Positions 14,418 through 35,421 of a stretch of 64,000 nt of DNA are shown piece by piece. How positions within the stretch are numbered: the stretch's first letter is position 1; every line of letters starts with the position of its first letter. Under the pieces are notes generated by a model, which did not search any database, was not told the origin of the DNA, and was given only the letters and a program-made list of their open reading frames with translations. The DNA is taken from NCBI GenBank assembly GCA_964489445.1, contig CAZAYU010000003.1, positions 65,172 through 129,171 on the forward strand, written 5' to 3'. A program made the translations under genes and the position numbers. Origin of the DNA: an uncultured Planctomycetia bacterium. GTDB lineage: Bacteria; Omnitrophota; Gorgyraeia; Duberdicusellales; 4484-171.

Positions 14418-14647
14418 AATAGTGTTATTTTCCTCGAAAAAGCTTATCATTGAATATACCATATTGCTGGAGGAATAGTCAATGTAGATAGCAATAAGTT
14501 TTGTAAACGTTTCCATCAAAAAGGCCTTATTGATGGCAGATTTCTTATCAGCGTGTATTTTTTCTTGGGTATTTTTAGAGAAAATGGTATAATTAGTCCC
14601 AATATTAGCGCTATTGATTAAAGCAGAAAGCGAATATTCTCTGAAAT

Positions 14648-14721: not shown

Positions 14722-14832
14722 TTTATATTGTTAATCTAAGGCAGCGAGAAATAGACAAAAGCATTTCTTTAAGACTTAGCTTCTTGGATACAATAGCCTT
14801 CGGCAATCTCGACTGTGCCGAGATATTGTATA

Positions 14833-20168: not shown

Positions 20169-20270
20169 CACAGCCCGTTAAGATGTTGGGGCCTAGGCAC
20201 TTAAGAATTACTATCCATGTTGAAAAAGATCGTTATAAATGGTAATCTTTTATTGGGGGGCAAATGTAAA

Positions 20271-20669
20271 ATGGCTCAAAATAAATGCCGATTAGGAAAA
20301 AAACTTCCTAAATATTTTCGAGGGTTTACGTTAATTGAAGTAATGATTTCTGTTGCTATTTTAACAGTAGTTGTTACTAGCTTGCTAATGTCTATAGTGT
20401 CTTGTGTGATGTTAAACCAGGCTAGCAGCAATTTAATAGTTGCCGCTAGCGATGCGCAAGATATCTTAGAGGATATAAAGAGCCTGCCAAACATTTATAA
20501 CGATATAGATAGTTATTTGCCACCAGGACTAAATAGTTTAACTAATGAAACGGTTAGTGTTAATGTCCTTCAAGTAAGCGAAGGATTAAAAGAGGTAACA
20601 GTTAATGTTGAGTGGGTGGATAAACAAAGGCAAAATAGTTTTCTGTTAACAACAAGGATTAACCGATAG
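20271..20669 (+). CDS. type IV minor pilin / pseudopilin (prepilin-type N-terminal methylation domain)
   Basis: 'RG|FTLIEVMISVAIL' class III signal with Glu+5. ATG at 20271 with a GGGGGG RBS; the track ORF starts at 20217. Confidence 0.65.
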   Translation: MAQNKCRLGKKLPKYFRGFTLIEVMISVAILTVVVTSLLMSIVSCVMLNQASSNLIVAASDAQDILEDIKSLPNIYNDIDSYLPPGLNSLTNETVSVNVLQVSEGLKEVTVNVEWVDKQRQNSFLLTTRINR

Positions 20670-20670
20670 C

Positions 20671-21273
20671 ATGAAAAGCGTTAATAAGAATAAAAAAAAA
20701 TATCGGATAAGGCGCACCAAAAGCTTAACTCTTGTTGAAACTTTGTTGGCGGTTTCAATTTTTATGGTCGTTCTTATGGGGTTTATGGCTAGCTTGAGTT
20801 TAGGCGAGGTATTCTTTCCTTTAAACTCAGCTAATGTAGATATGAGATCAAATGTTAGAGTAGCTATAAATTGGATTGTAAAAGATGCCAGACAGGCAGT
20901 AAATTGGGATATTGCCAATAATAATCCAGGAAGTTCTCATCTTAAGTTTCGTCGAGTCAACGGGTTAAACATTGACACAGGAGAATATTTACTGGATGAA
21001 GATTATATTGAGTACAATTATGATGCCAGTTCTTTTAAAATTGTTCGGAATTTAGTCAATTCTGAGGGAAATATTATCCGCTCTTGGGAATTTAATAATA
21101 TTAACCAAGCGCCTTTTTATACTCAACATAATGAAGAAGTTCAAGAATTTAATGAGAATTCATTTAGGGACAACGGAAAATTAATTGTGATAATCTCGGG
21201 GCAAAAAGAAATTAGAGGAGAAATGAACGCAGATTTTTCTCTAAGATCGGATGTAAAGGTGAGAAATGAATAA
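20671..21273 (+). CDS. minor pilin-like protein (non-canonical prepilin N-terminus)
   Basis: 'KSLTLVETLLAVSIFMVVL' hydrophobic pilin-like helix with Glu+5-like spacing but no Gly at −1. Confidence 0.45.
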   Translation: MKSVNKNKKKYRIRRTKSLTLVETLLAVSIFMVVLMGFMASLSLGEVFFPLNSANVDMRSNVRVAINWIVKDARQAVNWDIANNNPGSSHLKFRRVNGLNIDTGEYLLDEDYIEYNYDASSFKIVRNLVNSEGNIIRSWEFNNINQAPFYTQHNEEVQEFNENSFRDNGKLIVIISGQKEIRGEMNADFSLRSDVKVRNE

Positions 21274-22126
21274 AAAAGGATTTGCTTTAGTTGTAAGCTT
21301 GCTTACAGTATTGGCACTAAGTATTTTACTGGCCGGATTTTTTTTAAAAAGTATAAATGAAAAACATCTTGCTGAGAGATATGCTAATAGCATAAAAGCT
21401 TTTTGGTTGGCCGAAGCTGGAATTGCTGAAGGGATAAACAATTTACCTGGTAATGTTTCTAACTGTTTACAAGATGGATATTGCTATAGTGTTTTAGTTG
21501 TAAAGTTATCCGATGAGTACTACCAAATAAATTCGATAGGCACGGTTTCTTTGGCTTCTGGTGAGAAAGCAGAAAAAGAATTACAAGTAATTGTAAAAGT
21601 AAACCGTCCAGATTCTTCTAATTTTTCGCACGCAATAGAAACAACCGGCGAGCTACAAACGAGAGGAAGAGCGTACACGATTAACGGCACAATCAACGAG
21701 GAAGCTGCTTTAAATTTTGCTGATTTATTTGAATGTAGCAAAGAGGAGATGGAGTCAGCAGCTACTTACCTCTACGATGATGTTTTGCCAGAGCCAATTA
21801 ATGGAATAACGTGGGTGAATACAACTGATGGCAATGAATTAACAGTTGCTGGAAATATACAGGGTAGCGGAATTTTAGTTATTGCTGGCGACGTACACTT
21901 TTCCGGAACAATTGATATTGATGGTATAGTATATGTTATTGGAAAGCTAAGAATGTCTGGAACACCAACAATCAATGGAGCAATATTAGCTGAAAGCCAA
22001 GCGGAGGTTGATACTAGAATAGTCGGGCACGTTACTATTAATTATAATCCCGATACAATCAGTAGCGCTTTAATTTCTTTACAGGGGATGTCGTCAGAAG
22101 TTGTTTCTTGGCAAGAGGCCGAATAA
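21266..22126 (+). CDS. PilX-like type IV minor pilin
   Basis: 'KKGFALVVSLLTVLALSILL' PilX_N-type N-terminus. Confidence 0.5.
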   Translation: MNKKGFALVVSLLTVLALSILLAGFFLKSINEKHLAERYANSIKAFWLAEAGIAEGINNLPGNVSNCLQDGYCYSVLVVKLSDEYYQINSIGTVSLASGEKAEKELQVIVKVNRPDSSNFSHAIETTGELQTRGRAYTINGTINEEAALNFADLFECSKEEMESAATYLYDDVLPEPINGITWVNTTDGNELTVAGNIQGSGILVIAGDVHFSGTIDIDGIVYVIGKLRMSGTPTINGAILAESQAEVDTRIVGHVTINYNPDTISSALISLQGMSSEVVSWQEAE

Positions 22127-22311
22127 GTGAATGCAGGATGATTGTTTAATAAATTTTGTCCAACCCAGAAAGAGTTAATTTAAAAAAGACCGGCAATTGA
22201 CACTGATTATAAAAGATGATACCATTTATTAATGCAATATCTTAAAATTGCTTGATAGCCATAGGCTTACAATAACAATATTTCTTTATAATTTAAAAGG
22301 GAAGGGGAAAA

Positions 22312-23625
22312 ATGAATAAAAATAATTCTTTATCCAATCTAAGCTTAAAGCGAAGAATGTGGATTGCTATCTCATTAATCACTGTGCTTCCTTTGATTAT
22401 TTTTTTCTATTATGTCTATGGTTATGACATTTCCTTTTGGGCTACAGCAATTTTGGGGACAATTGTTTTTTTGGGTTGGTGGATAGTGTTTGAAGTATTT
22501 TCTTCCATTGTGGGCATGTGTACTCGTTCTCGCATTGCCTTGGGAAGAATTGGCGAAGAGGTTCCTTCAGCTTCTGATGAAGTGCAAAATTTAGAGAGTA
22601 TTATCAACTTGCTTTCCGATAAAGTTAAAGATAGTTTTAGCCAGCTAAAAGATTTTACCCGAATGACTGGAGAATTAAATAAAGAAGTGTCAAAAAAGGT
22701 GCTTATACTTTCCACGGTTCTCCAAGCTAATGACCTATTTTCAAAAGAGACTCCTGCTGAAGAAGTTATAAAATTTCTTGCTAATCACCTAAAAGAGTTA
22801 ATGGAAAACAAAGTTTGTTTTTGTAGTTTAAAAGAAAGTCTTCTTGAAGGGTTGAGAGTGGTTGCTTGCGAAGGGATTTCTTCTGCCAAAGTTAAAGAGT
22901 TTGGAGAAGGAAAGGATAGTGAAATACCGCGAATAGGCAAGATAATAGTAGTGGATAACTACAGTAAACCAGCTAAATATTTATCTTGGGCGAAAGAATT
23001 AGGTCTTAATAATTTAGCTATTTCTCCCATAATTTCTAGAGGGCAAATTGTAGGCATTGTAGGTATTGGGAATAAAAAAGATAACTTTTCTTTCGGAAAA
23101 GATGATCTAGATGTTTTAAATCTGTTTAGTCAAAATGTCACTTTAATTTGGGAGCACCAACGCCTTTCTTCTAAAATTGAAGAGCTGGAGGTATTAGATC
23201 ATTTAACTGGATTGTACAATGAAAAAATGATTAGTAAGAGATTGGATGAAGAAATCAAAAGGGCTACCGCCTACCAGCGTCCTTGTGGTTTTATTTCGGT
23301 TAAAGTTGTAAATTATAAAGATTTCCAAAAAAAATCAGGACAAATTGAAGCTGAAAGAAATCTAAAAATAATAGCCAAGAATCTGAAGAAATGCTTAAGA
23401 CCGATTGATATGGGCGGAAGAATATCTCCGGATGCGCTAGGAGCTATCTTGATAGAAAAAAATAAACGGCAGTCTCAAGAAATAGCTAGTAGCCTAGACA
23501 GTCTGTTAAAGAAGGGGTGTTCTGAAGAAATTGAATTATTGTTTTCTGTTGCAGAAAGCCCCATTGATGGAATTTCTGCAACAGAGCTGTTATCGTTCGT
23601 TCGGAAGCAGAAAAAAAATAAATAA
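22312..23625 (+). CDS. membrane signalling protein: 2 TM + GAF + degenerate GGDEF (GGRIS) with an RxxD I-site-like motif
   Basis: Two N-terminal TM helices and a GAF-like middle. The C-terminal 'DHLTGLYNE...LRPIDMGGRISPDALGAILIE' is a GGDEF fold with a dead active site and a retained RPID motif. Confidence 0.6.
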   Translation: MNKNNSLSNLSLKRRMWIAISLITVLPLIIFFYYVYGYDISFWATAILGTIVFLGWWIVFEVFSSIVGMCTRSRIALGRIGEEVPSASDEVQNLESIINLLSDKVKDSFSQLKDFTRMTGELNKEVSKKVLILSTVLQANDLFSKETPAEEVIKFLANHLKELMENKVCFCSLKESLLEGLRVVACEGISSAKVKEFGEGKDSEIPRIGKIIVVDNYSKPAKYLSWAKELGLNNLAISPIISRGQIVGIVGIGNKKDNFSFGKDDLDVLNLFSQNVTLIWEHQRLSSKIEELEVLDHLTGLYNEKMISKRLDEEIKRATAYQRPCGFISVKVVNYKDFQKKSGQIEAERNLKIIAKNLKKCLRPIDMGGRISPDALGAILIEKNKRQSQEIASSLDSLLKKGCSEEIELLFSVAESPIDGISATELLSFVRKQKKNK

Positions 23626-23628
23626 AAA

Positions 23629-24066
23629 ATGGAACCTAAAAGAAAAATTACTAAATTTCTAGGAGAGATTTTAGTAGAGAGGGGAGTCATTAACAATGCT
23701 CAGTTAAAAAAAGCTTTAGAAACCCAGAAACATGGAGAGGGGCTCATTGGAGAAGTAATTGTTGAGCTGGGATTTGCTAAAGAGGATGATATTGCTCATT
23801 GTTTGTCTTTGCAGTTTGGCTACCCTTATCTTCCTCTAGAAAACTATGAAATATCAGCAGAAATTGTAAAAATTATACCGCGCAAGGTTTGTGAATACTA
23901 TTGTTTGATTCCTATAGACAAAATAGGAGGAACGCTAACAATTGCTATGTCAAATCCTTTAAATGTGCAAGCGGTCGAAGATTTAGAAGATGTTGCTGAG
24001 TGTGATATCCAAATATTTGTGAGTACTCCTTCCGGAATCCGTAGCAGTATTAAAAAATTCTATTAA
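23629..24066 (+). CDS. stand-alone T2SSE_N / MshEN domain protein (putative c-di-GMP receptor)
   Basis: 'FLGEILVERGVINNAQLKKALETQ' matches the 24-residue MshEN motif RLGxxLxxxGxIxxxQLxxALxxQ. The rest is a GspE_N fold. 145 aa. Confidence 0.65.
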   Translation: MEPKRKITKFLGEILVERGVINNAQLKKALETQKHGEGLIGEVIVELGFAKEDDIAHCLSLQFGYPYLPLENYEISAEIVKIIPRKVCEYYCLIPIDKIGGTLTIAMSNPLNVQAVEDLEDVAECDIQIFVSTPSGIRSSIKKFY

Positions 24067-24068
24067 AA

Positions 24069-25808
24069 ATGAACAAGAACGAACATAGTTCACTTAATAA
24101 TAGTGAAACATCATTAAGAGGGTTTTCTGGATATCTATTAAAAAAAGGAGCTTTGTCTAAAGAGGAACTAGAAAGAGCCCTGACTACGCAAAAAAGAGAA
24201 AGAGAGTCTTTAGTAGGAATCATAGTTAAAATGGGATTTATCAAGGAAGAAATATTGCTAAATCTTCTTTCTGGCTATCTTTCTGTCCCGCCGGTTAGAG
24301 TTTTGAATTTAGATATCCCTAAGCAGATTTTAGGGTTGGTTCCTGAGAAAATTGCTCGCGCCTATCAAGTATTACCGGTAGGAATAATTGGCAATACATT
24401 AACCCTAGCCATGGGAGATCCATTAAATGTTTTAGCGATTGATGATATTAAAAAAATTACTAAGTGCGAAGTTAATCCGATAATTGCTCCTTTTTCTCAA
24501 ATTGCAAAAGCTATTTCTAATAACTATGCGCATGCGCCTACGGAAACAATAGAAGAAATAATTAAGGATCAGTCAGTCGATGCGTTAACTATAATTAAAG
24601 AAGGAAAGAGAGGTGTTTCTCAGGAAGAGATCTTTCGTTCAACCAAAGAAGCTCCGGTAATTAAGTTTACTAATGCTTTTCTTAGAAGAGCGGTTCATGA
24701 TAAAACATCGGACATTTTAATTGAGCCGCTAGAGAATACAAGTAGAGTGAGGTTAAGAATAGACGGTATACTAAGAGAGTTGGAGACTTTTTCTAAAAAA
24801 ATGCATCCGTTTATAGTGTCACGAATAAAAGTGCTATGTAATCTAAATATTGCTGAGCATCGCCTTCCTCAGGAAGGACGATTTCGCAGCAGAATTCTTG
24901 ATAGGGATGTAGACTTCAGAGTGTCCATATTACCTTCTAGCTTAGGAGAAAAAGTAGCGATAAGAATTCTAGACAAAACAGCTGCTATCTTAAACCTTGA
25001 TTTTTTAGGGTACGAAGATGATGTATTAAAAAAAATTAAACAGGATAGCTTAAAGGCTCATGGTTTGCTTCTTGCTTGTGGCCCTACTGGAGCAGGAAAA
25101 ACAACGGCTTTGTATTCGGTAATAAATCATATTTATAGTTCAGAAAAAAATATTGTTACAGTAGAGGATCCGATAGAATATCAGCTAAGAGGAATCAACC
25201 AAGTAAGCATTAATCCGGCTATTGGATTAACATTTGCTTCCGGGTTAAGATCAATATTAAGGCAGGATCCGGACATTGTAATGATTGGGGAAATTAGAGA
25301 TAAAGAAACTTCTGGGATGGCTATTAAGGCGGCTTTAACTGGTCATTTAGTTTTATCTACCTTACATACAACCACTAGCGCTGGTTCTGTTACTCGGTTG
25401 GTAAATATGGATATTGAACCTTTTTTACTTTCTTCGACGCTGTTAGGAGTTCTTGCCCAGAGATTGGTTAGAGTATTATGTCCAAAATGCAAAGAAAAAA
25501 GTAATTTAGCTGATGAGACAAGAAAAAAGTATTCACTAGAAAATAAAATTGTTATTTATAAACCAAAAGGGTGTAGTTTTTGTCAGAACATCGGATATAA
25601 AGGGAGGGTGGCTTTAAGCGAATATTTACAGATTTCTCCCTCAATCAAAAAATTAATTAACTCTTGCGTTTCAGAGGGGATTATAAAGAAAGAAGCACGC
25701 ATCGAAGGCATGCGTACTTTGCGAGAAGACGGCATTATAAAGGTAGAGAAAGGTCTAACAACGTTAGAAGAAGTAGTGAGAGTAACTGCAGCAGATGAAG
25801 ATCTATAG
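24069..25808 (+). CDS. type IV pilus assembly ATPase (PilB/GspE/MshE family) with N-terminal MshEN motif
   Basis: N-terminal 'FSGYLLKKGALSKEELERALTTQ' MshEN-type motif. Walker A GPTGAGKTT, Asp/His boxes, and a tetracysteine CPKC...CSFC. Confidence 0.9.
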   Translation: MNKNEHSSLNNSETSLRGFSGYLLKKGALSKEELERALTTQKRERESLVGIIVKMGFIKEEILLNLLSGYLSVPPVRVLNLDIPKQILGLVPEKIARAYQVLPVGIIGNTLTLAMGDPLNVLAIDDIKKITKCEVNPIIAPFSQIAKAISNNYAHAPTETIEEIIKDQSVDALTIIKEGKRGVSQEEIFRSTKEAPVIKFTNAFLRRAVHDKTSDILIEPLENTSRVRLRIDGILRELETFSKKMHPFIVSRIKVLCNLNIAEHRLPQEGRFRSRILDRDVDFRVSILPSSLGEKVAIRILDKTAAILNLDFLGYEDDVLKKIKQDSLKAHGLLLACGPTGAGKTTALYSVINHIYSSEKNIVTVEDPIEYQLRGINQVSINPAIGLTFASGLRSILRQDPDIVMIGEIRDKETSGMAIKAALTGHLVLSTLHTTTSAGSVTRLVNMDIEPFLLSSTLLGVLAQRLVRVLCPKCKEKSNLADETRKKYSLENKIVIYKPKGCSFCQNIGYKGRVALSEYLQISPSIKKLINSCVSEGIIKKEARIEGMRTLREDGIIKVEKGLTTLEEVVRVTAADEDL

Positions 25809-25869
25809 ATCTTAAAAACAAATAATGTAGTCCTGAGAAGATTAAATTTTTTAAATAAAAAGAAGCAAT

Positions 25870-27573
25870 ATGTCAATTAAAGAAAAAATAATAAACTATA
25901 TTCAGCAGAATAAGGAAATAGACAAAAAAGTTCTTCTAGAGATTACTAAAAGCGCCAATGATTATAACGCTCTTAAAAGTGCGTTGGTTAGTAATAAGTT
26001 TATCGACGAGGAAGAATTGCTGTTATTTTTTTCTCGAGAATTAAAGATCCCTTTTTTGGATTTAAAGAAGTATAGAATTCCTGCTGAGAATAAAAATTTA
26101 TTTTCTCAAGAGATTGCTTTTAAATATGCAGTGGTTCCTATTTGCAAAATAGGAACAGTGCTTACACTGGCTATTTCTGATCCCTTAGATGTTATTGCTT
26201 GTGATGATATTAAAATTATTACTGGTGTGGATAAAGTAGATTTAGTGCTTTCTCGTAAGGAGGATATTCTTAAATCATTGAAGGTATTGCATGGAATTAC
26301 CGAAGAAATATCCAATGTTTTGGAAGAAGATTCCTTCGAAGAAGAACTAAGCGAAACCAGCGATGGCAATGATAATTTAGAGGATCTAATAAGTGAGAGT
26401 AAACATCCTCCAATTGTTCGAGCGATTGACATGATTATCTATAGCGCTTTAAAAAAGAGGGCTTCGGATATTCATATTGAGCCTTACGAAGATAAATTGT
26501 TAGTGCGTTACAGGGTTGATGGAGTACTTAGTGATGAATTTAGTTTTCCGAAAAAAAATCAACGAGCGGTAATTGCGCGAATAAAAATAATTTCTTCTTT
26601 AGATATCACGGACTCTCGTCTTCCTCAGGATGGAAGATTTAAGGTGAGGTTTGAGAATAGAGAGATTGATTTCAGAGTTTCTACACTTCCTACTCATTTT
26701 GGAGAAAAATTTGTTTTAAGAGTTTTAGACAAAGATAGCTTGTCTGCAGGATTAAAAAATTTAGGATTTTCTTCCCAACCTTTAAAATTATTTTCCGAAG
26801 CAGTAAAAGCACCTTTTGGGATTATTTTAGTTACTGGTCCGACGGGAAGCGGAAAATCGACTACTCTTTATTCAATTATCAAGAAAATTAATTCTCCGGA
26901 TAAAAATATTATTACCATTGAAGATCCGGTTGAGTATCGTTTAGAAGGGATAACCCAAATTCAGGTTAATGCAGACATCGGATTAACTTTTTCTGCAGGT
27001 TTGCACTCAGTGTTGCGTCAATCTCCAGATATTATTATGGTTGGAGAAATTAGAGATTCAGAAACAGCAGATATTGCGATTAAAGCATCCCTAACAGGAG
27101 AAGTTATTTTGTCTACCTTGCATACAAATAGTGCTGTAGGTGCAATTACTCGGTTGAGAGAAATGGGCACAGAAGCATTTCTTCTAGGGTCTTCATTGGT
27201 AGCGCTTACTGCACAAAGACTAGCTAGAAAATTGTGCCCTAAGTGTAAAGAAAAGTATAAAATGGACCGCGGTCTACTCAAGAGAATGAAATTAGAGTCT
27301 TTATTAAAAGACAAAGAAGAAAATTATTTTTATCGCTCCAAAGGATGTTCTTTTTGTGGACATAGTGGATATTATGGAAGAATTGCTATCTTAGAAGTTA
27401 TTTTACTCGATGATAAAATAAGAGAAATGGTAGCGGGAAGAAAATCAGAAGAAGAAATTATTAAATATGCTAAAAAATTTAGGTCTTTTAATTCTTTGCA
27501 AAATGACGGGTTGCTAAAGTGTGTCGACGGAATAACTTCGATAGAAGAAATTATCAGGGTAACTACTGAATAA
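25870..27573 (+). CDS. second PilB/GspE-family secretion ATPase paralog
   Basis: GspE_N-like N-terminus, Walker A GPTGSGKST, tetracysteine CPKC...CSFC. Full-length PilB-type, not PilT-type. Confidence 0.9.
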   Translation: MSIKEKIINYIQQNKEIDKKVLLEITKSANDYNALKSALVSNKFIDEEELLLFFSRELKIPFLDLKKYRIPAENKNLFSQEIAFKYAVVPICKIGTVLTLAISDPLDVIACDDIKIITGVDKVDLVLSRKEDILKSLKVLHGITEEISNVLEEDSFEEELSETSDGNDNLEDLISESKHPPIVRAIDMIIYSALKKRASDIHIEPYEDKLLVRYRVDGVLSDEFSFPKKNQRAVIARIKIISSLDITDSRLPQDGRFKVRFENREIDFRVSTLPTHFGEKFVLRVLDKDSLSAGLKNLGFSSQPLKLFSEAVKAPFGIILVTGPTGSGKSTTLYSIIKKINSPDKNIITIEDPVEYRLEGITQIQVNADIGLTFSAGLHSVLRQSPDIIMVGEIRDSETADIAIKASLTGEVILSTLHTNSAVGAITRLREMGTEAFLLGSSLVALTAQRLARKLCPKCKEKYKMDRGLLKRMKLESLLKDKEENYFYRSKGCSFCGHSGYYGRIAILEVILLDDKIREMVAGRKSEEEIIKYAKKFRSFNSLQNDGLLKCVDGITSIEEIIRVTTE

Positions 27574-27603
27574 AGATTGATGGTAAGACGAGATGCGTAG
27601 AAT

Positions 27604-28818
27604 ATGAAATTATTTTATTATACAGTTAAGGACAAAGCAGGAAAAGTATTAAAGGGGTCAATAGAGGCAGAAACAGATAGCGCCCTAGTTTCCCATTTTC
27701 ATGATGAAGGATGTATAGTTTTTTCAATTAAGGAAATAAAAAATCAGAAGAGGAAAATAGTAAAAGGAAAAGTTAAAACCGAAGACTTGGTAATATTTTC
27801 TAGGCAATTTACCACATTGATTGAAAGCAGCATTCCCGTGGTAGAAGCCTTAGGCATTCTCAAAGAACAAGTTGAAAATGTCTATTTTAAAAGTGTTATC
27901 GAGTTAGTTCTAAAAGATGTCAAAGAAGGGGCAAGCCTTTCATCTGCCTTAGGAAAACACAAAAAAGTATTTCCCGATATTTATTTAAGTATGGTTAAGG
28001 CCGCTGAGGTATCAGGCAGCCTAGCAGAAATCTTAGATAGAGTGTCTGTTTATCTAGAAAAAAGTAATGCGTTAGCAAAGAAAGTAATGTCTGCTTTTTA
28101 TTATCCAATTGTTATTGTTATTATGGCAATTACGATAACTTCTTTTTTGATGTTTAAAGTTATTCCTACATTTAAAGGTATCTATGATTCTTTAGGAGGA
28201 GCGTTACCTTTGCCTACACAAATACTCATTAATATTACTGATAGTCTAACTCGTAAAGAATCTATTGTAATAATTTTGGTTCTATTAATTGGAGGGTTTT
28301 TTGGTTTTAAAAAATATATTAGTACCTCTAGTGGGCGAAGAAGATATGACCGGATTATTTTAAAAATTCCAGTTTTCGGTGATTTGTTAAAAAAGATAGC
28401 TATTGCTAAATTTTCTCGAACATTTGCTACTTTAGTAAAAAGTGGAGTGTCAATAGTTAAATGTTTAGAAATTGTAGCAAATACTTCAGGAAATAAAGTA
28501 ATTGAAGATGCGGTTTTGGAATCTAAAAAGTCTATTCAAAATGGAGAGACAATATCTGCTCCTTTAGAAAAAACAGGGGTGTTTCCTCCCATGGTGACCC
28601 GGATGATCTCTGTAGGAGAAAAAAGTGGGCGTCTCGAGCACATGCTATCTAAGGTCGCTCAATTTTATGAAGAACAAACAGATGCTATGGTTGCAGGTTT
28701 AAGTAGTTTAATAGAGCCGATAATAATAGCTTTTCTGGGAATAGTAGTGGGAGGAATAGTTGTTTCTTTATTTCTACCGATATTAAAAATAACTCAACAA
28801 ATAGGGGGTATGGGGTAA
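27604..28818 (+). CDS. type IV pilus inner-membrane platform protein PilC/GspF
   Basis: Two T2SSF repeats and 3 TM helices, ~400 aa. Confidence 0.9.
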   Translation: MKLFYYTVKDKAGKVLKGSIEAETDSALVSHFHDEGCIVFSIKEIKNQKRKIVKGKVKTEDLVIFSRQFTTLIESSIPVVEALGILKEQVENVYFKSVIELVLKDVKEGASLSSALGKHKKVFPDIYLSMVKAAEVSGSLAEILDRVSVYLEKSNALAKKVMSAFYYPIVIVIMAITITSFLMFKVIPTFKGIYDSLGGALPLPTQILINITDSLTRKESIVIILVLLIGGFFGFKKYISTSSGRRRYDRIILKIPVFGDLLKKIAIAKFSRTFATLVKSGVSIVKCLEIVANTSGNKVIEDAVLESKKSIQNGETISAPLEKTGVFPPMVTRMISVGEKSGRLEHMLSKVAQFYEEQTDAMVAGLSSLIEPIIIAFLGIVVGGIVVSLFLPILKITQQIGGMG

Positions 28819-28853
28819 AACGATTATTTTGCTAGTGTAGAGACGAGAGAGCG

Positions 28854-28882
28854 TTGACAGAGGTATCTAGATATGTTATATC
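28854..28882 (+). promoter_or_regulatory. sigma70-like promoter (TTGACA–N16/17–TTATAT) upstream of the major pilin gene
   Basis: Consensus −35 and a near-consensus −10, about 110 nt upstream of the ATG at 28991. Confidence 0.45.
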
Positions 28883-28990
28883 TTAATGTAGATAGATTAT
28901 TCTTTATATATATTATTATACCAACAGAACAGGTTTTTAAAAAAGGAGGTAAATAAACAAAAAACCTGGCTCTAAAAAAGGAGGAAAAAA

Positions 28991-29416
28991 ATGAGAAAAG
29001 GTTTTACTTTAGTCGAAATCATGATCGTTGTTGCAATAATTGCATTATTGGCAGTAATTGCTATTCCTGGACTTTTAAGAATGAGAGTTAACGCTAACGA
29101 AGCTAATGCGCAGGCAACTTTGAGGACTATTTCTACCGCATGTGAAAGCTACGCAGCTGCTAATAGCGGAAATTACCCAGCTAATGTTACCACTGTTCTA
29201 TACGGAGCCAATCCTAAGTATTTAAATGAAGATTATACCTTAGCCGCAAACAATCCACGCCAAGGATACACATTTGCGTGTGGGACCATGTCTACAGCAG
29301 GGTATACTTGCACAGCAAAGCCCACTAGTTGCACAACAACAGGGACAAAGAGTTTTACAGTGACAACTGGAGGAAGTTTAGCTACCGATTCTAGCTGTAC
29401 AGCTTCTGGTTCTTAG
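28991..29416 (+). CDS. type IV pilin (major pilin candidate)
   Basis: 'MRKG|FTLVEIMIVVAIIALLAVIAIP' class III signal. GGAGG RBS. Strong promoter and terminator flank it. Confidence 0.85.
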   Translation: MRKGFTLVEIMIVVAIIALLAVIAIPGLLRMRVNANEANAQATLRTISTACESYAAANSGNYPANVTTVLYGANPKYLNEDYTLAANNPRQGYTFACGTMSTAGYTCTAKPTSCTTTGTKSFTVTTGGSLATDSSCTASGS

Positions 29417-29443
29417 AAGAGGAACCTTCCGATGTGATAATAG

Positions 29444-29477
29444 GCCGCCTTTTGGTAAACAAAAGGCGGTTTTTTTA
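29444..29477 (+). terminator. rho-independent terminator after the pilin gene
   Basis: GGCCGCCTTTTG-gtaaa-CAAAAGGCGG stem (about 11 bp) followed by a T7 run. Confidence 0.65.
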
Positions 29478-29487
29478 TTTTTGGTTC

Positions 29488-29516
29488 ATTGACAAAGATA
29501 TGTAAGTATATTAATA
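29488..29516 (+). promoter_or_regulatory. sigma70-like promoter (TTGACA–N17–TAATAT) for the second pilin gene
   Basis: Consensus −35 immediately after the terminator. Confidence 0.4.
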
Positions 29517-29663
29517 TACCTATATTACATATTTTTATGAAATATGACTACTCACATTTTACCAGAAGAGAAATGGAAGGACTGGTTTACGAAGCTTAAC
29601 TTTTTAATGCTTAGTTATTATTATTTAATATAAGTAGTAATAACTCAACCAAAAGGAGGAGCC

Positions 29664-30122
29664 ATGTTTTTTATGGTTAGCAAAACTAAACAGAAACAAG
29701 GATTTACTATTGTTGAGCTTATGGTTACCATAGGCATTGTTATGATTCTTGCTCTTTTAGCCATTCCTCATGTTTGGCGAGTGAGAGTCAACTCTAATGA
29801 ATCTGTAGCTGTGTCGAATATAACTTCCTTGAATAGTGTATTACAATTATATTATATTAATAATAATATCTTTCCGGAAAGCCTGTCAATGCTTACTCCT
29901 CCGCAAGCCAACCCTGGATATATAGACCAGGAATTAGCCAGTGGGTCTAAGTCAGGGTATAATCTTGAGTATTCTTATACAGACGGATCTCATTTTTACA
30001 TTAATGCTAATCCCCAATCTTTAGGGCGGACAGGCAATAATTATTTTTATATAGATGAAACTGGTGTAGTAAGAAGTAATTCAGAAGAAGAGGCAGGTGT
30101 CAATGATTCCCCACTTAGATAG
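29664..30122 (+). CDS. type IV pilin paralog
   Basis: 'KQG|FTIVELMVTIGIVMILALLAIP'. GGAGGAG RBS. Confidence 0.8.
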   Translation: MFFMVSKTKQKQGFTIVELMVTIGIVMILALLAIPHVWRVRVNSNESVAVSNITSLNSVLQLYYINNNIFPESLSMLTPPQANPGYIDQELASGSKSGYNLEYSYTDGSHFYINANPQSLGRTGNNYFYIDETGVVRSNSEEEAGVNDSPLR

Positions 30123-31113
30123 AATATCTCAATTAAGCCATATGTTTAGTTTTAAAGAAAACGATTTTGTGGGCATCAACATTGGAAGTTATTACCTCAA
30201 AGGATTAGCTGTTCAAAAAGGAGAAATAGTCAATTGGTTTTTAGAACGAAATAATGGGCTTGCTCAGACCATCAAAAAGATATGGGATGAAAAAAAAATT
30301 CCCATTAAAAGGGCCAAGCTGTCTGTAAAGGGATCTTCTTGTTTAGTTCGTTGCTTTCCGTTTCCAAAAATGGAAAAGAAAAAACAAAGACAGGCTTTAT
30401 TTTATGAGATGAGTAAATTTATTCCTTTTTCTTCGGCTGATGTTTATTTTGATTTTTTTAATTTGCAAGATATTAGCTCTAAAGAAGAGTTAATTCTTTT
30501 AGCTGTGGCAAAAAAAGAATTTATCAATAGTATCTTAGAGGCTTTTGATAAAAACAATATTTCCGTTTCACAGATAAGCCTAGATAGTATTTGTTTACTA
30601 AATCTTTTTTTAAGCGTTTATAAAACTGATAAAGAAGAAAATGCGGCGATCTTAGATTTAGGATATGATTATTCAACGTTGTCAATCGTACATAAGGGAA
30701 CTCCTTTTTTAATTAGAGATGTAAAATTCAGTACCAAAGAAATTCTACAAATTGTTTCTCGAGTTAAAGATTTTTCTATAGAAGATGCAAATAAATGGAT
30801 TAACTCTTTAAAGGATAAAAGCGAATTTTTTAAATTAGTCGGTGATACTATTTCTCGTTTTTGTCAAGAGATGAAGAGCTCTTTTGATTATTTTGAAGTG
30901 AACAAAGGTGAGCATATTGATAAATTATACTTGAGTGGTGGTTTAGTTTCGGTAGAGGGAATTGAAAACATATTTTTCGAATCTTTAGACATCAAAACAG
31001 ATATTTTAAATATAGTTCCTTCGGACAAAAAGAGTTTACTTAGTAATTTTTTAAACAAGCAACAATTTTTTTTAAAAAATGATTTTACGACTGTTTTTGG
31101 ATTAGTCTCTTAA
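30097..31113 (+). CDS. type IV pilus assembly protein PilM (actin-like ATPase)
   Basis: Size, the 'INIGSYYLKG' N-terminal phosphate loop-like motif, and position before PilN/O/P/Q. Confidence 0.75.
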   Translation: MSMIPHLDRISQLSHMFSFKENDFVGINIGSYYLKGLAVQKGEIVNWFLERNNGLAQTIKKIWDEKKIPIKRAKLSVKGSSCLVRCFPFPKMEKKKQRQALFYEMSKFIPFSSADVYFDFFNLQDISSKEELILLAVAKKEFINSILEAFDKNNISVSQISLDSICLLNLFLSVYKTDKEENAAILDLGYDYSTLSIVHKGTPFLIRDVKFSTKEILQIVSRVKDFSIEDANKWINSLKDKSEFFKLVGDTISRFCQEMKSSFDYFEVNKGEHIDKLYLSGGLVSVEGIENIFFESLDIKTDILNIVPSDKKSLLSNFLNKQQFFLKNDFTTVFGLVS

Positions 31114-31135
31114 GCAATTTTAAAAAATATAAATA

Positions 31136-31699
31136 GTGAAGAGAATAGAAATAGATTTAAATCCCAAGAAAAAGCACACATTAAGTGAAGATTTTCAAAA
31201 AATTGTTGTGTTTGCTCCGTTAGCCATTCTGCTGGCAGCTGTTATTTTTATTTTACTGATAATTTTGCAGGTAGTTGTAGTTCAAAAACAAGCTAAATTA
31301 GGTGGGGTTAGAAAACAAGAAGAAATCTGGAGTGAAAAGGCTAGCATTGTTCAAGCTATTAGAACAGATATATTTGAATTAGAAAAAGAAAAGAATATCC
31401 TTCAAGGAGTAATTGTTTCTGAGGATGAAGTTGCAAAAATTTTAAATGATGTTTTCTTGTCAATACCTAAAAATATCTGGCTTGAGCAGTTTAATCTTGA
31501 TGAACAATCTATTAGTCTATCTGGCTGCGTTGTAAGATGGAAAGAAGATCCTTTGGGCTCTTTGGAGAAATTTATTAATTCTTTGAGAAAAAAGAAATAT
31601 TTCTCTCTAAAGTTTAAAAAGGTACATATTAAGGATTCGAAGAAGGTGAATTTTAGTGGGACTGAAGTACTAAAGTTTGATATCGAATGCAAAAAATAA
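31136..31699 (+). CDS. PilN-like bitopic membrane protein
   Basis: Single N-terminal TM and a coiled-coil. Gene order. Confidence 0.55.
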   Translation: MKRIEIDLNPKKKHTLSEDFQKIVVFAPLAILLAAVIFILLIILQVVVVQKQAKLGGVRKQEEIWSEKASIVQAIRTDIFELEKEKNILQGVIVSEDEVAKILNDVFLSIPKNIWLEQFNLDEQSISLSGCVVRWKEDPLGSLEKFINSLRKKKYFSLKFKKVHIKDSKKVNFSGTEVLKFDIECKK

Positions 31700-32229
31700 A
31701 TTTTCACAAACAAACAATTATTTTTTTAATTATCGTTTTGTTTTTGGTGGTTGGGTTTTTGGTATTTCTGCCTTGGAGAATTGGGGCAATATTGGATCTG
31801 AATAAGAAAATAGCACAATCCACCGGCAACCTAAACACGGTTAAATCCAGCTGGGCTTTAAAAGATAGTTATTTGAACACAAAGAATAATATTAAAATAG
31901 AGATTGAAAAAGTGCGAATGAAAATTATTTCTTTAGAAGAAGATACTAAAGTGTATTCTTTTATCTCTGCTGGTAGTAAAAGTTTTAATATAAATATTCA
32001 TTCTTTATCTCCGGAAAAGCTCCAGGATTATGCCTTAACTAATTCAGGCGACTTTAAGTATTTACCGATTCAGATTAAAGCTGAAGGAGGGTTTCATAGT
32101 TTGATTGGATTTTTGAATTATCTCCAAAACAGCAAGTATCTTTTCGGGGTAAAGCAGCTAAGTATAAGTAGCAAGTATCCCCTTAATGAAATAAATATGA
32201 CAATATGTTGCTTAATAGAAAAAAAATAA
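31687..32229 (+). CDS. PilO-like bitopic membrane protein
   Basis: Single TM then coiled-coil. Gene order. Confidence 0.5.
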   Translation: MQKINFHKQTIIFLIIVLFLVVGFLVFLPWRIGAILDLNKKIAQSTGNLNTVKSSWALKDSYLNTKNNIKIEIEKVRMKIISLEEDTKVYSFISAGSKSFNINIHSLSPEKLQDYALTNSGDFKYLPIQIKAEGGFHSLIGFLNYLQNSKYLFGVKQLSISSKYPLNEINMTICCLIEKK

Positions 32230-32540
32230 TTTTTATTTTTGTTGGAATTATTATTTTATTTTTTTCTGCTGTTGTCAATTATGCAGAAGAAGAGCGTGAT
32301 CCATTTCTACCACTGGTTAATAAAAATGGGTTAGTGTTAATACCTACGGAAGTTGATGTTGGAGGGTTACAATTGGGAGGAATAATTTATTCGGAAGAAT
32401 CTCCAGTTGCGATTATTAACCAAGAAGTATTAAAACGAGAAGAAGTGATAGAGGGATATGAAATTATGGCAATAAATGAAAAAGAAGTTATTTTAAAGAA
32501 AGGAAATGATGAGTTTATCTTAAAACTGGAGGATGAATGA
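32205..32540 (+). CDS. PilP-like protein
   Basis: N-terminal TM, an 'EERDPF' motif and a C-terminal beta-domain. Confidence 0.5.
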   Translation: MLLNRKKIIFIFVGIIILFFSAVVNYAEEERDPFLPLVNKNGLVLIPTEVDVGGLQLGGIIYSEESPVAIINQEVLKREEVIEGYEIMAINEKEVILKKGNDEFILKLEDE

Positions 32541-34132
32541 AGAGAAGGAATAATAAAAAAGAAAAACAAAGAAAGGAAGAATATTTCCCGGTGTTTTTCA
32601 AAGGAAAGAATATAGCAGTCTTCGGTAAAAGAATATTGTTTATTTTATGCTTGTTATTTGCTTTTTGCTGTTGCGCGGCACCTCTAATTTATGCTCAGCA
32701 AGAGGTAATTTCAGTTATAAAATTTAAAGATGTGGGTATTAAAGTAGTTCTTCAATCAATTGCCGCTAAGGCGGAAAAAGATGGTGAGAAAGTCAATATT
32801 ATTGTTAGTCCCAATGTTGAGGGGCTAGTTACTGTCAAGTTAGAAAACATAAGTTGGCAGGAAGCCTTAGATGGCATAGTCGGAGCCTATAACTATGATT
32901 ATAAATGGATCGGAAATAATGTCATTCTGGTGGGAACGTTAGAAGAAATAAAAGATAAAGAGTTACGGGAACGTGAAATGCATGAAATAGAAGTTCCCCG
33001 AACAAAAGTATTTAAGTTAAGCTATCTTGATGCTAATGACGCAAAAAAGACGATAGAACCTTTATTGTCTGCAGTAGGGAGAATTTCGGTTTTAGAAGCA
33101 ACTGGGCAGGCTGGATGGGAATTTGGGACAGATGTTACTAAGCGGACACGCTCCAAAGAAGGTAAGATTTCTCGAACAAAAACTTTAGTTGTCTCTGACG
33201 TTTCCTCTACTTTAAAAGATATTGCCTTGCTTTTAGAAGAAATAGATATTAGACCTCAACAGATTTTAATAAAAGCTAGGATTATGGAGGTGAGTAATGA
33301 TTTTTTGAAGGATTTTGGATTTAGTTGGGGAACGGGCAGTGATGGTGCATCTCAGTCTACTTTACGGTTTCAGGAGATAGATAATAATGGGCGGAAAACA
33401 GTTGCTGGGCATATGTTAAACAGTGTTACTCCGAATATTTGGAATCCTTTAGAGGGAACGGCGTTTACACCATCTACTGCAGGGTTGCAACTTGCTTTTC
33501 AAAAGTTAACTGGGCAGCAGTTCGAAGTAATTTTAAGTGCTGTAGAGGAAGATGCTAACACGAATACTCTGTCTGCGCCGACAATTGTTACCTTAAATAA
33601 TCAGGAAGCTTCCATTCTTGTCGGGGAAAAATATCCGATTATAAAAACAGATACTAGTACGGAAACTAGTCGGATTGTCGGCGGATCATTAGAAGAGTAT
33701 AAAGATATTGGAATACAGTTGAATGTTGTTCCTCAGATTTGTGGTAAAAACAGTGAATTCATAAACATGATTGTTCATCCTGCAGTTACGTCGGAATCTG
33801 GAACGGTAAGCGTTAAAGCAGATAGCGATACAGTTCTTGTATCATATCCGATCATTGCTTCTCGCGAGGCAGAAACTCAAGTATTAGTTAAAGATGGAGA
33901 AACAATTGTTATCGGAGGGTTAATGAAGGATGTCAAGTCAAAAGAGGAAATTGGGATTCCATTTTTAAGCAGAATTCCTGTTCTCGGATGGTTATTTAAG
34001 CGTTCTACAGAGGATACACTTAAAATGGATTTATTAATTTTTATTACCGCTAAAATAATTGAGCCCGGAGAAATAATTTCCCAGGAAATTGTAAAAACAA
34101 AACAAGTTACTAATCAATTTAAAGGTAAGTAA
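32537..34132 (+). CDS. type IV pilus secretin PilQ
   Basis: C-terminal secretin domain 'TLNNQEASILVGEKYP...GIPFLSRIPVLGWLF' with N0/N1-like domains upstream. Confidence 0.85.
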   Translation: MKRRNNKKEKQRKEEYFPVFFKGKNIAVFGKRILFILCLLFAFCCCAAPLIYAQQEVISVIKFKDVGIKVVLQSIAAKAEKDGEKVNIIVSPNVEGLVTVKLENISWQEALDGIVGAYNYDYKWIGNNVILVGTLEEIKDKELREREMHEIEVPRTKVFKLSYLDANDAKKTIEPLLSAVGRISVLEATGQAGWEFGTDVTKRTRSKEGKISRTKTLVVSDVSSTLKDIALLLEEIDIRPQQILIKARIMEVSNDFLKDFGFSWGTGSDGASQSTLRFQEIDNNGRKTVAGHMLNSVTPNIWNPLEGTAFTPSTAGLQLAFQKLTGQQFEVILSAVEEDANTNTLSAPTIVTLNNQEASILVGEKYPIIKTDTSTETSRIVGGSLEEYKDIGIQLNVVPQICGKNSEFINMIVHPAVTSESGTVSVKADSDTVLVSYPIIASREAETQVLVKDGETIVIGGLMKDVKSKEEIGIPFLSRIPVLGWLFKRSTEDTLKMDLLIFITAKIIEPGEIISQEIVKTKQVTNQFKGK

Positions 34133-34136
34133 AGGT

Positions 34137-34934
34137 ATGTATTTTGAGCTTTATGGTCTAAAAAAAGCGCCATTTAATATTACTTCTGACCCGGAAGTTT
34201 TTTATGAAAGTTCTTCTCACCGGGAAGCATTAGCTGCTCTTATTTATGGAATAGAAGAAAAAAAAGGGATAATTCTGGTTACCGGTGAAGTGGGAACAGG
34301 AAAAACAACTCTTTGCAAAACTCTTCTTCACAGACTTAATCCCCGAATAAAAACCTCATTAATACTTAATCCTTACTTTAGTGAAGTGCAATTATTACAG
34401 GCGATTGTAGAAGATTTTGGTTTAAAAGCTGAGAAGAAAAATCGTTTAGAGATGGTTAAAAAACTAAATGCTTTTTTAGTTGAAGTAAGCCTTGAAGGAG
34501 GAGGGGCAGTGTTAATTATTGATGAAGCTCAGAATTTGACTAATCGCCAATTAGAGCAAGTTCGTCTCCTATCTAATTTAGAGACTTCTCATGATAAATT
34601 GCTGCAAATTATCATTGCTGGACAGCCGGAATTAATAAAAAAACTCAGTAGCTTTGATTTACGACAAATCCGCCAAAGAATATCAATAAAACATCGGCTT
34701 TCTCCGCTAAGTGAAGAAGAAGTAAAAGGATATGTTCGGTTTAGGCTAGAGAGTGCAGGTGGCGACGGAATTAATATTGTACCGGAAGGGTATAAAGTTA
34801 TCTATGAGTTTTCTAAAGGTATCCCTCGCTTAATTAACATATTGTGTGATCGTGCGTTGTTATGTGGATTTGTTAAAGAGAAAAAAACTTTTGATCGAGA
34901 AATATTTAAAGCTTGCGTTGAAGACCTTAAATAA
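34137..34934 (+). CDS. ExeA/GspA/MshM-like AAA ATPase
   Basis: 'LVTGEVGTGKTTLCKTLL' Walker A (AAA_22) and 'LIIDEAQNL' Walker B. Short form without a peptidoglycan-binding domain. Confidence 0.8.
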   Translation: MYFELYGLKKAPFNITSDPEVFYESSSHREALAALIYGIEEKKGIILVTGEVGTGKTTLCKTLLHRLNPRIKTSLILNPYFSEVQLLQAIVEDFGLKAEKKNRLEMVKKLNAFLVEVSLEGGGAVLIIDEAQNLTNRQLEQVRLLSNLETSHDKLLQIIIAGQPELIKKLSSFDLRQIRQRISIKHRLSPLSEEEVKGYVRFRLESAGGDGINIVPEGYKVIYEFSKGIPRLINILCDRALLCGFVKEKKTFDREIFKACVEDLK

Positions 34935-34953
34935 AAGAACAACAATAAAATAA

Positions 34954-35421
34954 ATGAGTATTATATATGAAGCCCTAAAAAAAGTAGAGAAGAACCAAGG
35001 TCTTAGGGAGAATAAAAAAAATACTGACGAAAAAGAAATTTTTAAAAGTAAAACTAGCAAAAATAGGTTTTTTTCAGGAAAGATAATTATTTTTATTTTT
35101 GTGGGGATATTGGTGTGTTTAGGATTAATCTTGAATTTAACAGGCAGAAAAGATAATCTCGAGATGATGGCAAATAAAACAACGGAAAAAATAGAAATTG
35201 TTTCCCAACAAGTGGAACAATATCCGGAAATCGTACCTGGTGTGTATGCTCTTGAAGGAGTTGTCCAGGACGGAGAAAATTCATTTGTGGTGGTTAACGG
35301 AAAAATACTAAAGATGTTTGACAAGATAGACGACTTTACAGTAAATAGAATTAGCGGAAATGAAGTAGAGTTGCTAAACCTTAAAGATAATAGTAAGCTA
35401 ATCCTTTCTCTTTCTTTTTAA
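34954..35421 (+). CDS. GspB/ExeB-like bitopic protein
   Basis: N-terminal 'SIIYEALKKVEK' resembles the GspB 'SYIL.AL.KAE' start. One TM helix. Confidence 0.4.
   Translation: MSIIYEALKKVEKNQGLRENKKNTDEKEIFKSKTSKNRFFSGKIIIFIFVGILVCLGLILNLTGRKDNLEMMANKTTEKIEIVSQQVEQYPEIVPGVYALEGVVQDGENSFVVVNGKILKMFDKIDDFTVNRISGNEVELLNLKDNSKLILSLSF

Follow-up and report, generated by a model that had tools for sequence, protein, structure and literature searches.

A probable type IVa-like pilus cluster of Candidatus Omnitrophota with two tandem PilB-type ATPases and a stand-alone MshEN protein

Results

We analysed a 64,000-nt stretch of contig CAZAYU010000003.1 (hereafter the window; low GC, about 34%) and found at 20217-35421 what is likely a cluster for type IVa-like pilus biogenesis, conserved across its phylum, in a Candidatus Omnitrophota bacterium; "likely" here covers the full explanation, including the mechanism proposed in the Discussion. 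The cluster is predicted to encode two old paralogous PilB-type hexameric assembly ATPases in tandem (PilB1 and PilB2), both with intact catalytic motifs. The canonical motif for binding cyclic di-GMP (c-di-GMP) appears to be lost from both motors and kept on a separate 145-aa protein immediately upstream, which resembles the N1 domain (N1D) of PilB and looks like a PilB regulatory domain acting in trans. Pilins, a PilC platform, PilM, PilN and PilO, a small protein at the PilP position and a PilQ secretin are also encoded, and the predicted products form a complete envelope-spanning machine.

The domains of the open reading frames (ORFs) were identified by Pfam and NCBIfam profile searches, with cutoffs as given for each family. 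Together with a reading of the N-termini, these searches showed that the gene inventory of a preliminary description of this DNA, which had reported a contiguous and co-directional pilus locus, was essentially correct. All 17 ORFs lie on the + strand, with short or overlapping junctions and three larger intergenic gaps (185, 172 and 247 nt), and the domains proposed for checking (T2SSE, MshEN/T2SSE_N, T2SSF, Secretin and AAA_22) all matched. Coordinates of the pilus genes below refer to the + strand of the window, and loci from other genomes carry L numbers.

Two full-length PilB-type ATPases are encoded in tandem

PilB1 (24069-25808, 579 aa) and PilB2 (25870-27573, 567 aa) both matched MshEN/T2SSE_N and T2SSE, the latter with 417 and 444 bits, respectively. 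Both have Walker A, Walker B, a His box and a tetracysteine (CPKC...CSFC), in agreement with the earlier reading of two full-length assembly ATPases with an N-terminal domain. PilB1 scored 561 bits with TIGR02538, 570 bits with TIGR02533 and 167 bits with pilT_fam, and PilB2 scored 580 bits with TIGR02538 and 172 bits with pilT_fam (cutoff 319); the NCBIfam equivalog cutoffs for PilB and PilC were reached by none of PilB1, PilB2 and PilC. Among solved structures, both ATPases gave ~450 bits to Geobacter and Myxococcus PilB (454 bits for PilB1 against PilB in the PDB), ~400 bits to GspE cores and ~100-116 bits to PilT. The two proteins are 40% identical overall and 45% identical over 327 aligned core columns. 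Each shows 50-54% core identity to PilBs and GspEs of other phyla, above the 45% to its neighbour, indicating that the duplication is old.

We then compared 134 ATPases from 80 loci across phyla, plus annotated references, in a neighbour-joining (NJ) tree. The loci, which also served for the comparison of gene context, were an arbitrary cross-phylum sample from a profile search of genome contigs with the PilB1 alignment (best match 52% identity, close orthologs not included). The references were A. baumannii PilB, E. coli GspE, P. aeruginosa XcpR and, from the MshE position of a Legionella adelaidensis plasmid locus whose secretin is annotated MshL, a GspE/PulE-family ATPase. This plasmid locus was used as the mannose-sensitive hemagglutinin (MSHA) reference in place of an Aeromonas caviae plasmid match (H5), which was rejected as an MshE reference since it is a tapB gene interrupted by an insertion. 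The results showed that the PilT clade, with 100% bootstrap, leaves out both window ATPases, so that, as had been claimed, neither is PilT-like. The Omnitrophota PilB2 orthologs formed a clade with 80% bootstrap. The nodes for PilB1 monophyly (31%) and PilB1/PilB2 sisterhood (26%) were weak, and these bootstraps do not settle between a sister relationship and separate origins.

Two full-length PilBs were also observed in other phyla, in the order PilB-PilT-PilB-PilC in Planctomycetota/Verrucomicrobiota loci and PilB-PilB-PilC in a Lentisphaeria (Lentisphaerota) locus (L051, L081, L088, and L058). In the NJ tree, these PilBs fell in clades apart from the Omnitrophota pair. A pair of PilB motors may thus be a common feature of phyla related to the Planctomycetota-Verrucomicrobiota-Chlamydiota (PVC) group.

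A tblastn search with the ATPase cores detected no third T2SSE ATPase in the 64 kb. No ORF of the window matched Peptidase_A24, and tblastn with A. baumannii PilD was empty there, which bears out the earlier statement that the window has neither PilT nor a prepilin peptidase. The same tblastn found no PilD in the Omnitrophota loci fetched and found PilD in 13 loci of other phyla. A PilT-clade gene lies directly upstream of the MshEN gene in the Omnitrophota locus L014 and another in a second pilus locus (L019), so the lack of PilT in the window does not mean that the lineage has none.

The intact c-di-GMP motif is carried by a stand-alone MshEN protein

The protein encoded immediately upstream of PilB1 (23629-24066, 145 aa) consists of an MshEN domain only, as the preliminary description had noticed, and matched NF053729 with 59.2 bits (cutoff 38). 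The MshEN site is built from two 24-residue motifs joined by five residues, and even its relaxed pattern has an obligatory Gly at position 3 (Wang et al. 2016). The stand-alone protein has this layout with both motifs intact: FLGEILVERGVINNAQLKKALETQ, the five-residue spacer KHGEG, and LIGEVIVELGFAKEDDIAHCLSLQ. Two tandem copies of the motif were present in 22 of 24 stand-alone orthologs (position 1 left free). The residues invariant in all 24 are the LG...G...L...L..Q positions of both motifs, which are the ligand-contacting residues described by Wang et al. 2016.

The motors gave a different result. In PilB1, Ser and Val replace the two Gly residues at position 3, and NF053729 scored 36.5 bits, under the cutoff. 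None of the 22 PilB1 orthologs, even by the relaxed published pattern, and none of the 10 PilB2 orthologs had the motif, although PilB2 also has a Pfam MshEN domain. The claim that the first PilB carries an N-terminal MshEN c-di-GMP motif was therefore not upheld, and the motif is intact only in the stand-alone protein.

The stand-alone protein aligned end to end with the Geobacter PilB N1D (94 bits), the GSPII domains of PilF and V. cholerae MshE-N (5HTL, 63 bits); it gave up to 113 bits to PilB N1Ds of other phyla, compared with 82 bits to that of its own neighbour. Its family comprises >100 clusters of about 145 aa that are 65-90% identical. Every named member among the 120 listed is from Omnitrophota; the annotation given is 'hypothetical protein' or, from JGI, 'PilB'. 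Two Omnitrophota lineages, L029 and L033, have a PilB1 ortholog whose first residue corresponds to residue 196-200 of the window PilB1; it lacks the N1D and stands directly after a stand-alone MshEN gene. This pattern of fused and split forms suggests a trans action of the small protein on the motor.

L013 (13913-14368) and L024 (13917-14390) have a further stand-alone MshEN gene between PilB2 and PilC, again with two copies of the motif. Outside Omnitrophota, MshEN-domain genes of 926, 316 and 147 aa immediately precede a PilB whose place in the tree is close to Omnitrophota PilB1 (L015 298-3078, L016 9011-9961 and L017 765-1208); these loci come from Hydrogenedentales, Chthoniobacterales and one unclassified metagenome-assembled genome (MAG).

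The locus is conserved across Omnitrophota

Every named sequence among the 120 best PilB1 homologs listed came from a Candidatus Omnitrophica/Omnitrophota MAG. The gene order was kept where PilB1 is only 58-70% identical (L006, L008, L009, L098 and L099), and the neighbourhood in those genomes runs DUF212-YkuD-AccA-(PadR), minor pilins, (the degenerate GGDEF gene), MshEN, PilB1, PilB2, usually PilC, pilins and PilMNOPQ. MshEN-PilB1-PilB2 was present in every Omnitrophota locus of this type examined. L099 contains the whole locus, including the secretin followed by the pair of a 265-aa AAA ATPase and a 157-aa protein, and a divergent GH94 gene. The same order was found on independent ENA, JGI and Logan assemblies, indicating that the cluster is not a misassembly of two loci, a possibility that the preliminary description had raised.

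A degenerate GGDEF protein is a probable second c-di-GMP receptor

The gene before MshEN (22312-23625) encodes a membrane-anchored protein with GAF_2 (29.7 bits), GGDEF (58 bits) and two transmembrane (TM) helices. Its GGDEF domain reads RPID-MGGRI-SPDAL, that is, the active site is SPDAL with RPID exactly five residues upstream, and the metal-binding DxD...ND region is also altered; the earlier naming of a degenerate GGDEF membrane protein was thus borne out. Among 29 orthologs, D366 never varies, R363 is kept in at least 90%, and the GGDEF position is not conserved. The dead active site combined with a conserved RxxD I-site indicates that the protein is probably a c-di-GMP receptor, not a cyclase. 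Its AlphaFold2 (AF2) model (predicted local distance difference test score, pLDDT, 76.8) matched GAF- or PHY-linked cyclases. Family members are about 435 aa long, and those named among the 120 listed are all from Omnitrophota. About 100 listed proteins of the family are called 'diguanylate cyclase' wherever they are named, an annotation that is probably wrong.

Two other genes of the window have c-di-GMP-related domains. A probable active diguanylate cyclase (61022-62173, - strand) combines a GAF-like domain with a GGDEF domain in which RYGGEEF, DIDDFK and an RKID I-site are intact. The Wzz + GNVR polysaccharide co-polymerase of an upstream exopolysaccharide (EPS) locus (11929-13620, - strand) has a C-terminal PilZ domain (32 bits), suggesting that exopolysaccharide export in the window is also c-di-GMP-controlled.

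The predicted core is type IVa-like and the secretin-side module resembles MSHA and type II secretion accessories

To the PilB-type ATPases is joined the other element of a type IVa pilus (T4aP) core, the platform protein PilC (27604-28818; T2SSF x2, 204 bits), which scored 381 bits with NF052607 PilC and 368 bits with GspF (cutoff 424), both under cutoff. PilM (30142-31113), an actin-like cytoplasmic protein, matched PilM_2 with 81 bits, above cutoff, and TIGR01175 with 101 bits (cutoff 133); the gene call in L001 places its start at 30142, which is more likely than the ORF start at 30097. The PilN-like bitopic protein (31136-31699) has a TM helix and scored 20.9 bits with PF05137 (cutoff 22.8). 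At the PilO position, a bitopic protein (31687-32229) has a TM helix and no family match in Pfam or NCBIfam; its L009 and L098 orthologs match PF04350 PilO weakly. The small protein at the PilP position (32205-32540, 111 aa) is MshK/GspB-C-like: it had a sub-threshold T2SSB match (18.8 bits) and no match to canonical PilP (PF04351), its match in the Legionella MSHA locus was the MshK-position ORF (E 4e-7), and its C-terminal domain resembles that of the 155-aa protein at the end of the locus (E 2e-4). Of the four names given to these genes before, PilO and PilP have no significant family match in the window.

The secretin (32537-34132) matched Pfam Secretin with 153.6 bits. The PilQ model TIGR02515 scored best (252 bits, cutoff 284), followed by GspD (225 bits, cutoff 351) and MshL (128 bits, cutoff 250), all under cutoff. 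The other equivalogs of the type II secretion system (T2SS) also stayed under cutoff, including GspE (570 and 563 bits for the two ATPases, cutoff 630), and GspC, GspL and GspM had no matches. MshN was not found in the locus, and PilM, PilN and PilO did not match the Legionella ORFs at the MshI and MshJ positions. The core identity of the window ATPases to the Legionella MshE reference was 43-45%, and in the NJ tree, whose deep nodes are weakly supported, they lie beside neither this reference nor the GspE references. The resemblance to MSHA is limited to the small protein and to the gene order (PilM-N-O, small protein, secretin, AAA ATPase). The PilQ and MshL scores, the separate PilM and the tree position indicate that the predicted core is T4aP-like, not MSHA or T2SS, and that only the secretin-side module resembles MSHA/T2SS accessories. 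The earlier view of an MSHA/T2SS-T4aP hybrid accordingly agrees with the resemblance of the small protein, the AAA ATPase and the GspB-fold protein and is not supported for the core.

Downstream of the secretin, the preliminary description had named an ExeA/MshM-like ATPase and a GspB-like protein, and both were recovered. The AAA ATPase (34137-34934, 265 aa) matched AAA_22 with 96.5 bits and is of the ExeA/MshM/XrtA-associated family. Its best NCBIfam match was TIGR03015, the XrtA/PEP-CTERM-associated ATPase (287.5 bits, under the cutoff of 324.5). It is 43% identical to the N-domain of a 571-aa Aeromonas ORF read as ExeA, scored 183 bits against the AAA ATPase that occupies the MshM position in the Legionella locus, and had no PG_binding match and no TM segment. 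The GspB-like bitopic protein (34954-35421, 155 aa) has an N-terminal MSIIYEALKK helix, a TM helix and a C-terminal domain of the PilP/GspB/GspC homology region (HR) fold. In its family of about 211 representatives, S2, A7 and L8 are invariant, and in 40 members CdsD_C was matched by 26 and T2SSB by 2. The C-domain of its AF2 model has a pLDDT above 95, and the top Foldseek matches were PilP (2LC4/2Y4Y), Dickeya GspB (4WFW; rank 2, root-mean-square deviation 1.8 Å, probability 1.0, E 0.04) and GspC-HR (3OSS, bound to GspD N0).

Pilins and transcription signals

Three pilin-like genes open the locus (a slash marks the putative cleavage position). Minor pilin 1 (20217-20669) is PilV/GspI-like, with N_methyl (33.8 bits) at aa 33-56 and a cleavage-site-like FRG/FTLIE; its true start may be the internal Met19. 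Pilin-like protein 2 (20671-21273) has a non-canonical N-terminus, S/LTLVE, with a hydrophobic N-terminal helix and E5, and has orthologs in L009. Pilin-like protein 3 (21266-22126), large and read from its sequence as GspK/PilX-like, has G/FALVV without E5, and orthologs of 286-546 aa occupy the same position in L006, L009, L098 and L099. Neither protein 2 nor protein 3 had a family match in Pfam or NCBIfam. Behind PilC follow PilA1 (28991-29416; N_methyl 29.3 bits), the candidate major pilin with the four-residue leader MRKG/FTLVE, and PilA2 (29664-30122; N_methyl 27.6 bits, T2SSG 17.9 bits, sub-threshold), with the leader ...KQKQG/FTIVE. Other Omnitrophota encode an STT3/PglB-type oligosaccharyltransferase (about 850 aa) between the pilin genes and PilM (L008 16723-19326, L009 15417-17963 and L098 15356-17905), which suggests pilin glycosylation by an N-OST-type enzyme; this gene is absent from the window.

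Promoter-like sites, identified by consensus match only, precede the block from the degenerate GGDEF gene through MshEN, PilB1 and PilB2 to PilC (TTGACA-17-TG-TACCAT, 22197-22225), pilA1 (TTGACA-17-TATATC, 28854-28882) and pilA2 (TTGACA-17-TAATAT, 29489-29517). An intrinsic-terminator-like hairpin with a 13-bp stem and a T-run, resembling a strong terminator, follows pilA1 (29442-29472). Three of the six + strand TTGACA hexamers of the locus fall within 743 nt of intergenic gaps (P = 0.002), and each of the intergenic ones is followed 17 nt on by an A/T-rich hexamer. Only this placement was enriched; overall counts of sigma-70-like promoters and terminators showed no excess over shuffled controls, and a sigma-54 promoter upstream of pilA1 was looked for and not found.

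Neighbouring genes

A PadR-family gene (19626-20168, + strand; Pfam PadR 44.8 bits) lies directly upstream of the pilus locus, and the order AccA-PadR-pilins also occurs in L008, L009, L098 and L099; from this synteny, PadR is a possible regulator of the locus. At the other end, a GH94-family glycoside phosphorylase gene (35441-38065, - strand) converges on the pilus locus, as it does in L099 (21108-21704, - strand), where PilB1 is 70% identical, showing conserved synteny. About 5 kb upstream of the pilus genes, a polysaccharide locus (1-14684) encodes a B12-radical SAM protein, a flippase, glycosyltransferases, Wzy_C, Bac_transf, the Wzz-PilZ protein and Poly_export; beside this locus stands the observation that the best NCBIfam match of the pilus-locus AAA ATPase is an EPS-associated ATPase. 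The sole tRNA of the window (Met, CAT; 14647-14722, + strand) overlaps by ~38 nt the 5' end of the longest Poly_export ORF (13629-14684, - strand), so the real start of this gene is probably further downstream. Finally, an ORF of at least 534 aa (62.4 kb to 64000, + strand) continues beyond the 3' end of the window; giant ORFs are a known feature of Omnitrophota.

Discussion

Omnitrophota are ultra-small bacteria without cultured members that are believed to live attached to other cells or to prey on them, and type IV pili have been proposed as their contact organelle (PMC10066038). They have been scored as encoding T4aP, with genes in nearly all, and the text of that study mentions neither PilB, PilT nor c-di-GMP (Seymour et al. 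2023, PMC10066038). The three are likewise not mentioned in a 2026 preprint about complete Omnitrophota genomes. An F-type ATPase called 'symbiotic' has been reported beside many Omnitrophota T4aP loci (PMC10066038), and it is not in the 64-kb window. We found no description of a locus with dual PilB and stand-alone MshEN in the literature searched. The function of the PilB N1D/MshEN domain has been stated to be poorly understood (PMC11656802), and a lineage that encodes the N1D as a separate, highly conserved protein, in some members with no other N1D, provides a natural separation-of-function experiment. With its two assembly motors and putative c-di-GMP receptors acting in trans, the pilus cluster also offers concrete targets for heterologous biochemistry.

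We propose that c-di-GMP, made for example by the GGEEF cyclase at 61022-62173, would be read by two trans-acting receptors, the MshEN protein and the degenerate GGDEF protein. Serving as a regulatory N-domain that can detach, the small MshEN protein would dock on PilB1, possibly also on PilB2 or on the platform of PilM and PilC, and would license or tune pilus extension. The two motors would share the work as PilB and TfpB of Acinetobacter baylyi do; for example, one motor might prime and the other be processive, or only one might be c-di-GMP-gated, its partner being constitutive. The AAA ATPase and the GspB-fold protein would help secretin assembly or placement as ExeA/ExeB do, with the GspB-fold domain contacting the secretin N0 domain. 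A retraction ATPase and a prepilin peptidase would come from elsewhere in the genome. It is also conceivable, at a level we regard as doubtful, that free c-di-GMP-loaded MshEN is a shared, exchangeable N1D that selects the PilB to work with the single PilC/PilM platform and perhaps docks on the degenerate GGDEF protein. If true, such an exchange would be a motor switch under second-messenger control, of a kind not described for type IV pili.

Several points weigh against our proposal. Every functional step in it is one that we infer. Position 1 of both motifs of the stand-alone protein is F or L and not the published R/K/P/N, and with 36.5 bits against a cutoff of 38 it is possible that PilB1 keeps residual c-di-GMP binding. 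About half of the Omnitrophota loci examined (L006, L013, L014, L024, L029 and L033) lack the degenerate GGDEF gene, which is thus an accessory part. PelD-specific homology of its product was looked for and not found, with no PelD in the PDB sequence matches nor in the top 50 Foldseek structural matches to its model. The Foldseek E-values for the C-domain of the 155-aa protein are weak (0.03-0.07), and the direct sequence similarity of this protein to the Aeromonas ORF read as ExeB was not significant by BLASTP; 'GspB-like' therefore holds for architecture and fold only.

Other explanations of the locus were weighed against this one. It seems improbable to us that the machine is an MSHA/T2SS-T4aP hybrid in which PilB1 itself is an MshE-like c-di-GMP-sensing motor. 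Both PilBs do match Pfam MshEN, PilB1 falls just below the cutoff of the motif model, the ATPase cores are as similar to GspE references (51-52% identity) as to T4aP PilBs, and the series from PilM-N-O through the small protein and the secretin to the AAA ATPase parallels MshI-J-K-L-M in the Legionella locus, a bona fide MSHA locus, including the matches of the 111-aa protein and the AAA protein to their positional counterparts. However, the essential Gly is replaced in both halves of the PilB1 motif, no PilB1 ortholog matches even the relaxed motif, and MshL scores well below PilQ; MshN, GspC, GspL and GspM are lacking, PilM, PilN and PilO do not match the MshI/MshJ-position ORFs, and the ATPases do not stand next to the MshE or GspE references in the tree, with the caveat on its deep nodes given above. 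We give an equally low probability to one filament per PilB, with PilA1 forming a long pilus and PilA2 a short T2SS-like endopilus or second pilus on a shared platform and secretin. The separate promoter-like sites of pilA1 and pilA2 with a terminator between them, the weak T2SSG match of PilA2, the closeness of both ATPases to GspE as much as to PilB, and the usual system specificity of extension ATPases (PMC11656802) would fit it; against it, there is a single PilC, PilMNO set and secretin, T2SS-specific parts are absent, and dual-PilB Omnitrophota loci have one pilin gene or another number adjacent (L009, L013 and L024).

PilB2 might also have taken over an antagonist or retraction role, as it sits between PilB and PilC in the slot that PilT holds in roughly 30 of about 70 non-Omnitrophota loci sampled, and the window has no PilT. 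Its full PilB architecture (N1D, N2 domain, C-terminal domain and tetracysteine), its grouping with PilBs outside the fully supported PilT clade, and the existence of PilT-clade genes in Omnitrophota, once directly beside this locus type (L014), make such a role very unlikely. Even less credible, to the point of being nearly negligible, is that the stand-alone MshEN protein is a functionless, decaying fragment of a duplicated or frameshifted pilB. Its length is exactly that of a PilB N1D and its gene ends 2 nt upstream of pilB1, but it is in another reading frame than PilB1 with its own start and stop, its >100 clusters keep their length and identity with invariant ligand-contact residues, and it has a second copy in L013 and L024, while PilB1 of L029 and L033 has no other N1D to draw on.

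Our preferred reading, a T4aP-like machine with two motors and trans-acting c-di-GMP receptors, can be compared with several known systems. It shares with the type IVa pilus of Pseudomonas, Myxococcus and Thermus the class III signal pilins, a PilB-type ATPase, PilC, a separate PilM, bitopic proteins at the PilN/O positions and a PilQ-type secretin. It differs in its two tandem PilBs, the lack of PilT and PilD in the cluster, the lack of a canonical PilP, the appended ExeA/MshM-family ATPase with its GspB-fold protein, and the embedded c-di-GMP receptor genes. For the dual motors, the closest precedent by analogy is A. baylyi, where a single T4aP has two extension motors, the full-length PilB-family ATPases PilB and TfpB (review PMC11656802). 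The window pair are not TfpB orthologs (NF053534 425 and 436 bits, cutoff 850), their genes are adjacent and kept phylum-wide, and their cooperation is proposed by analogy.

The tandem-motif domain of 53 residues coupled to a PilB-type motor is the same in V. cholerae MshE and in M. xanthus and C. perfringens PilB, and T. thermophilus PilF, with three GSPII domains, shows extra N1D-type domains accompanying one motor. In contrast to these, the intact motif is here on a separate polypeptide, the motors' own N-domains have lost it, and the motor of some lineages has no N-domain. A catalytically dead c-di-GMP-turnover domain serving as a receptor beside an envelope machine is known from PilB-PilZ-FimX of Xanthomonas and from Pseudomonas PelD. 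The present locus has no EAL domain and no PilZ adaptor, unlike the former. With PelD, the degenerate GGDEF protein shares a membrane anchor, GAF and a degenerate GGDEF with retained RxxD; yet it is not close to PelD in sequence or structure, and its best matches are active GAF- or PHY-linked cyclases, which argues for parallel derivation and not for descent as a PelD relative. Lastly, ExeA/ExeB (GspA/GspB) of the Aeromonas and Vibrio T2SS and MshM of MSHA resemble the end of the locus in having an AAA_22 ATPase and then a bitopic protein right after the secretin gene, and the partner has the same MSxxxxALxK N-terminus, TM helix and GspB/PilP-fold C-domain. Unlike ExeA, the window ATPase has no TM segment and no peptidoglycan-binding domain, and its best model is the XrtA/PEP-CTERM-associated ATPase.

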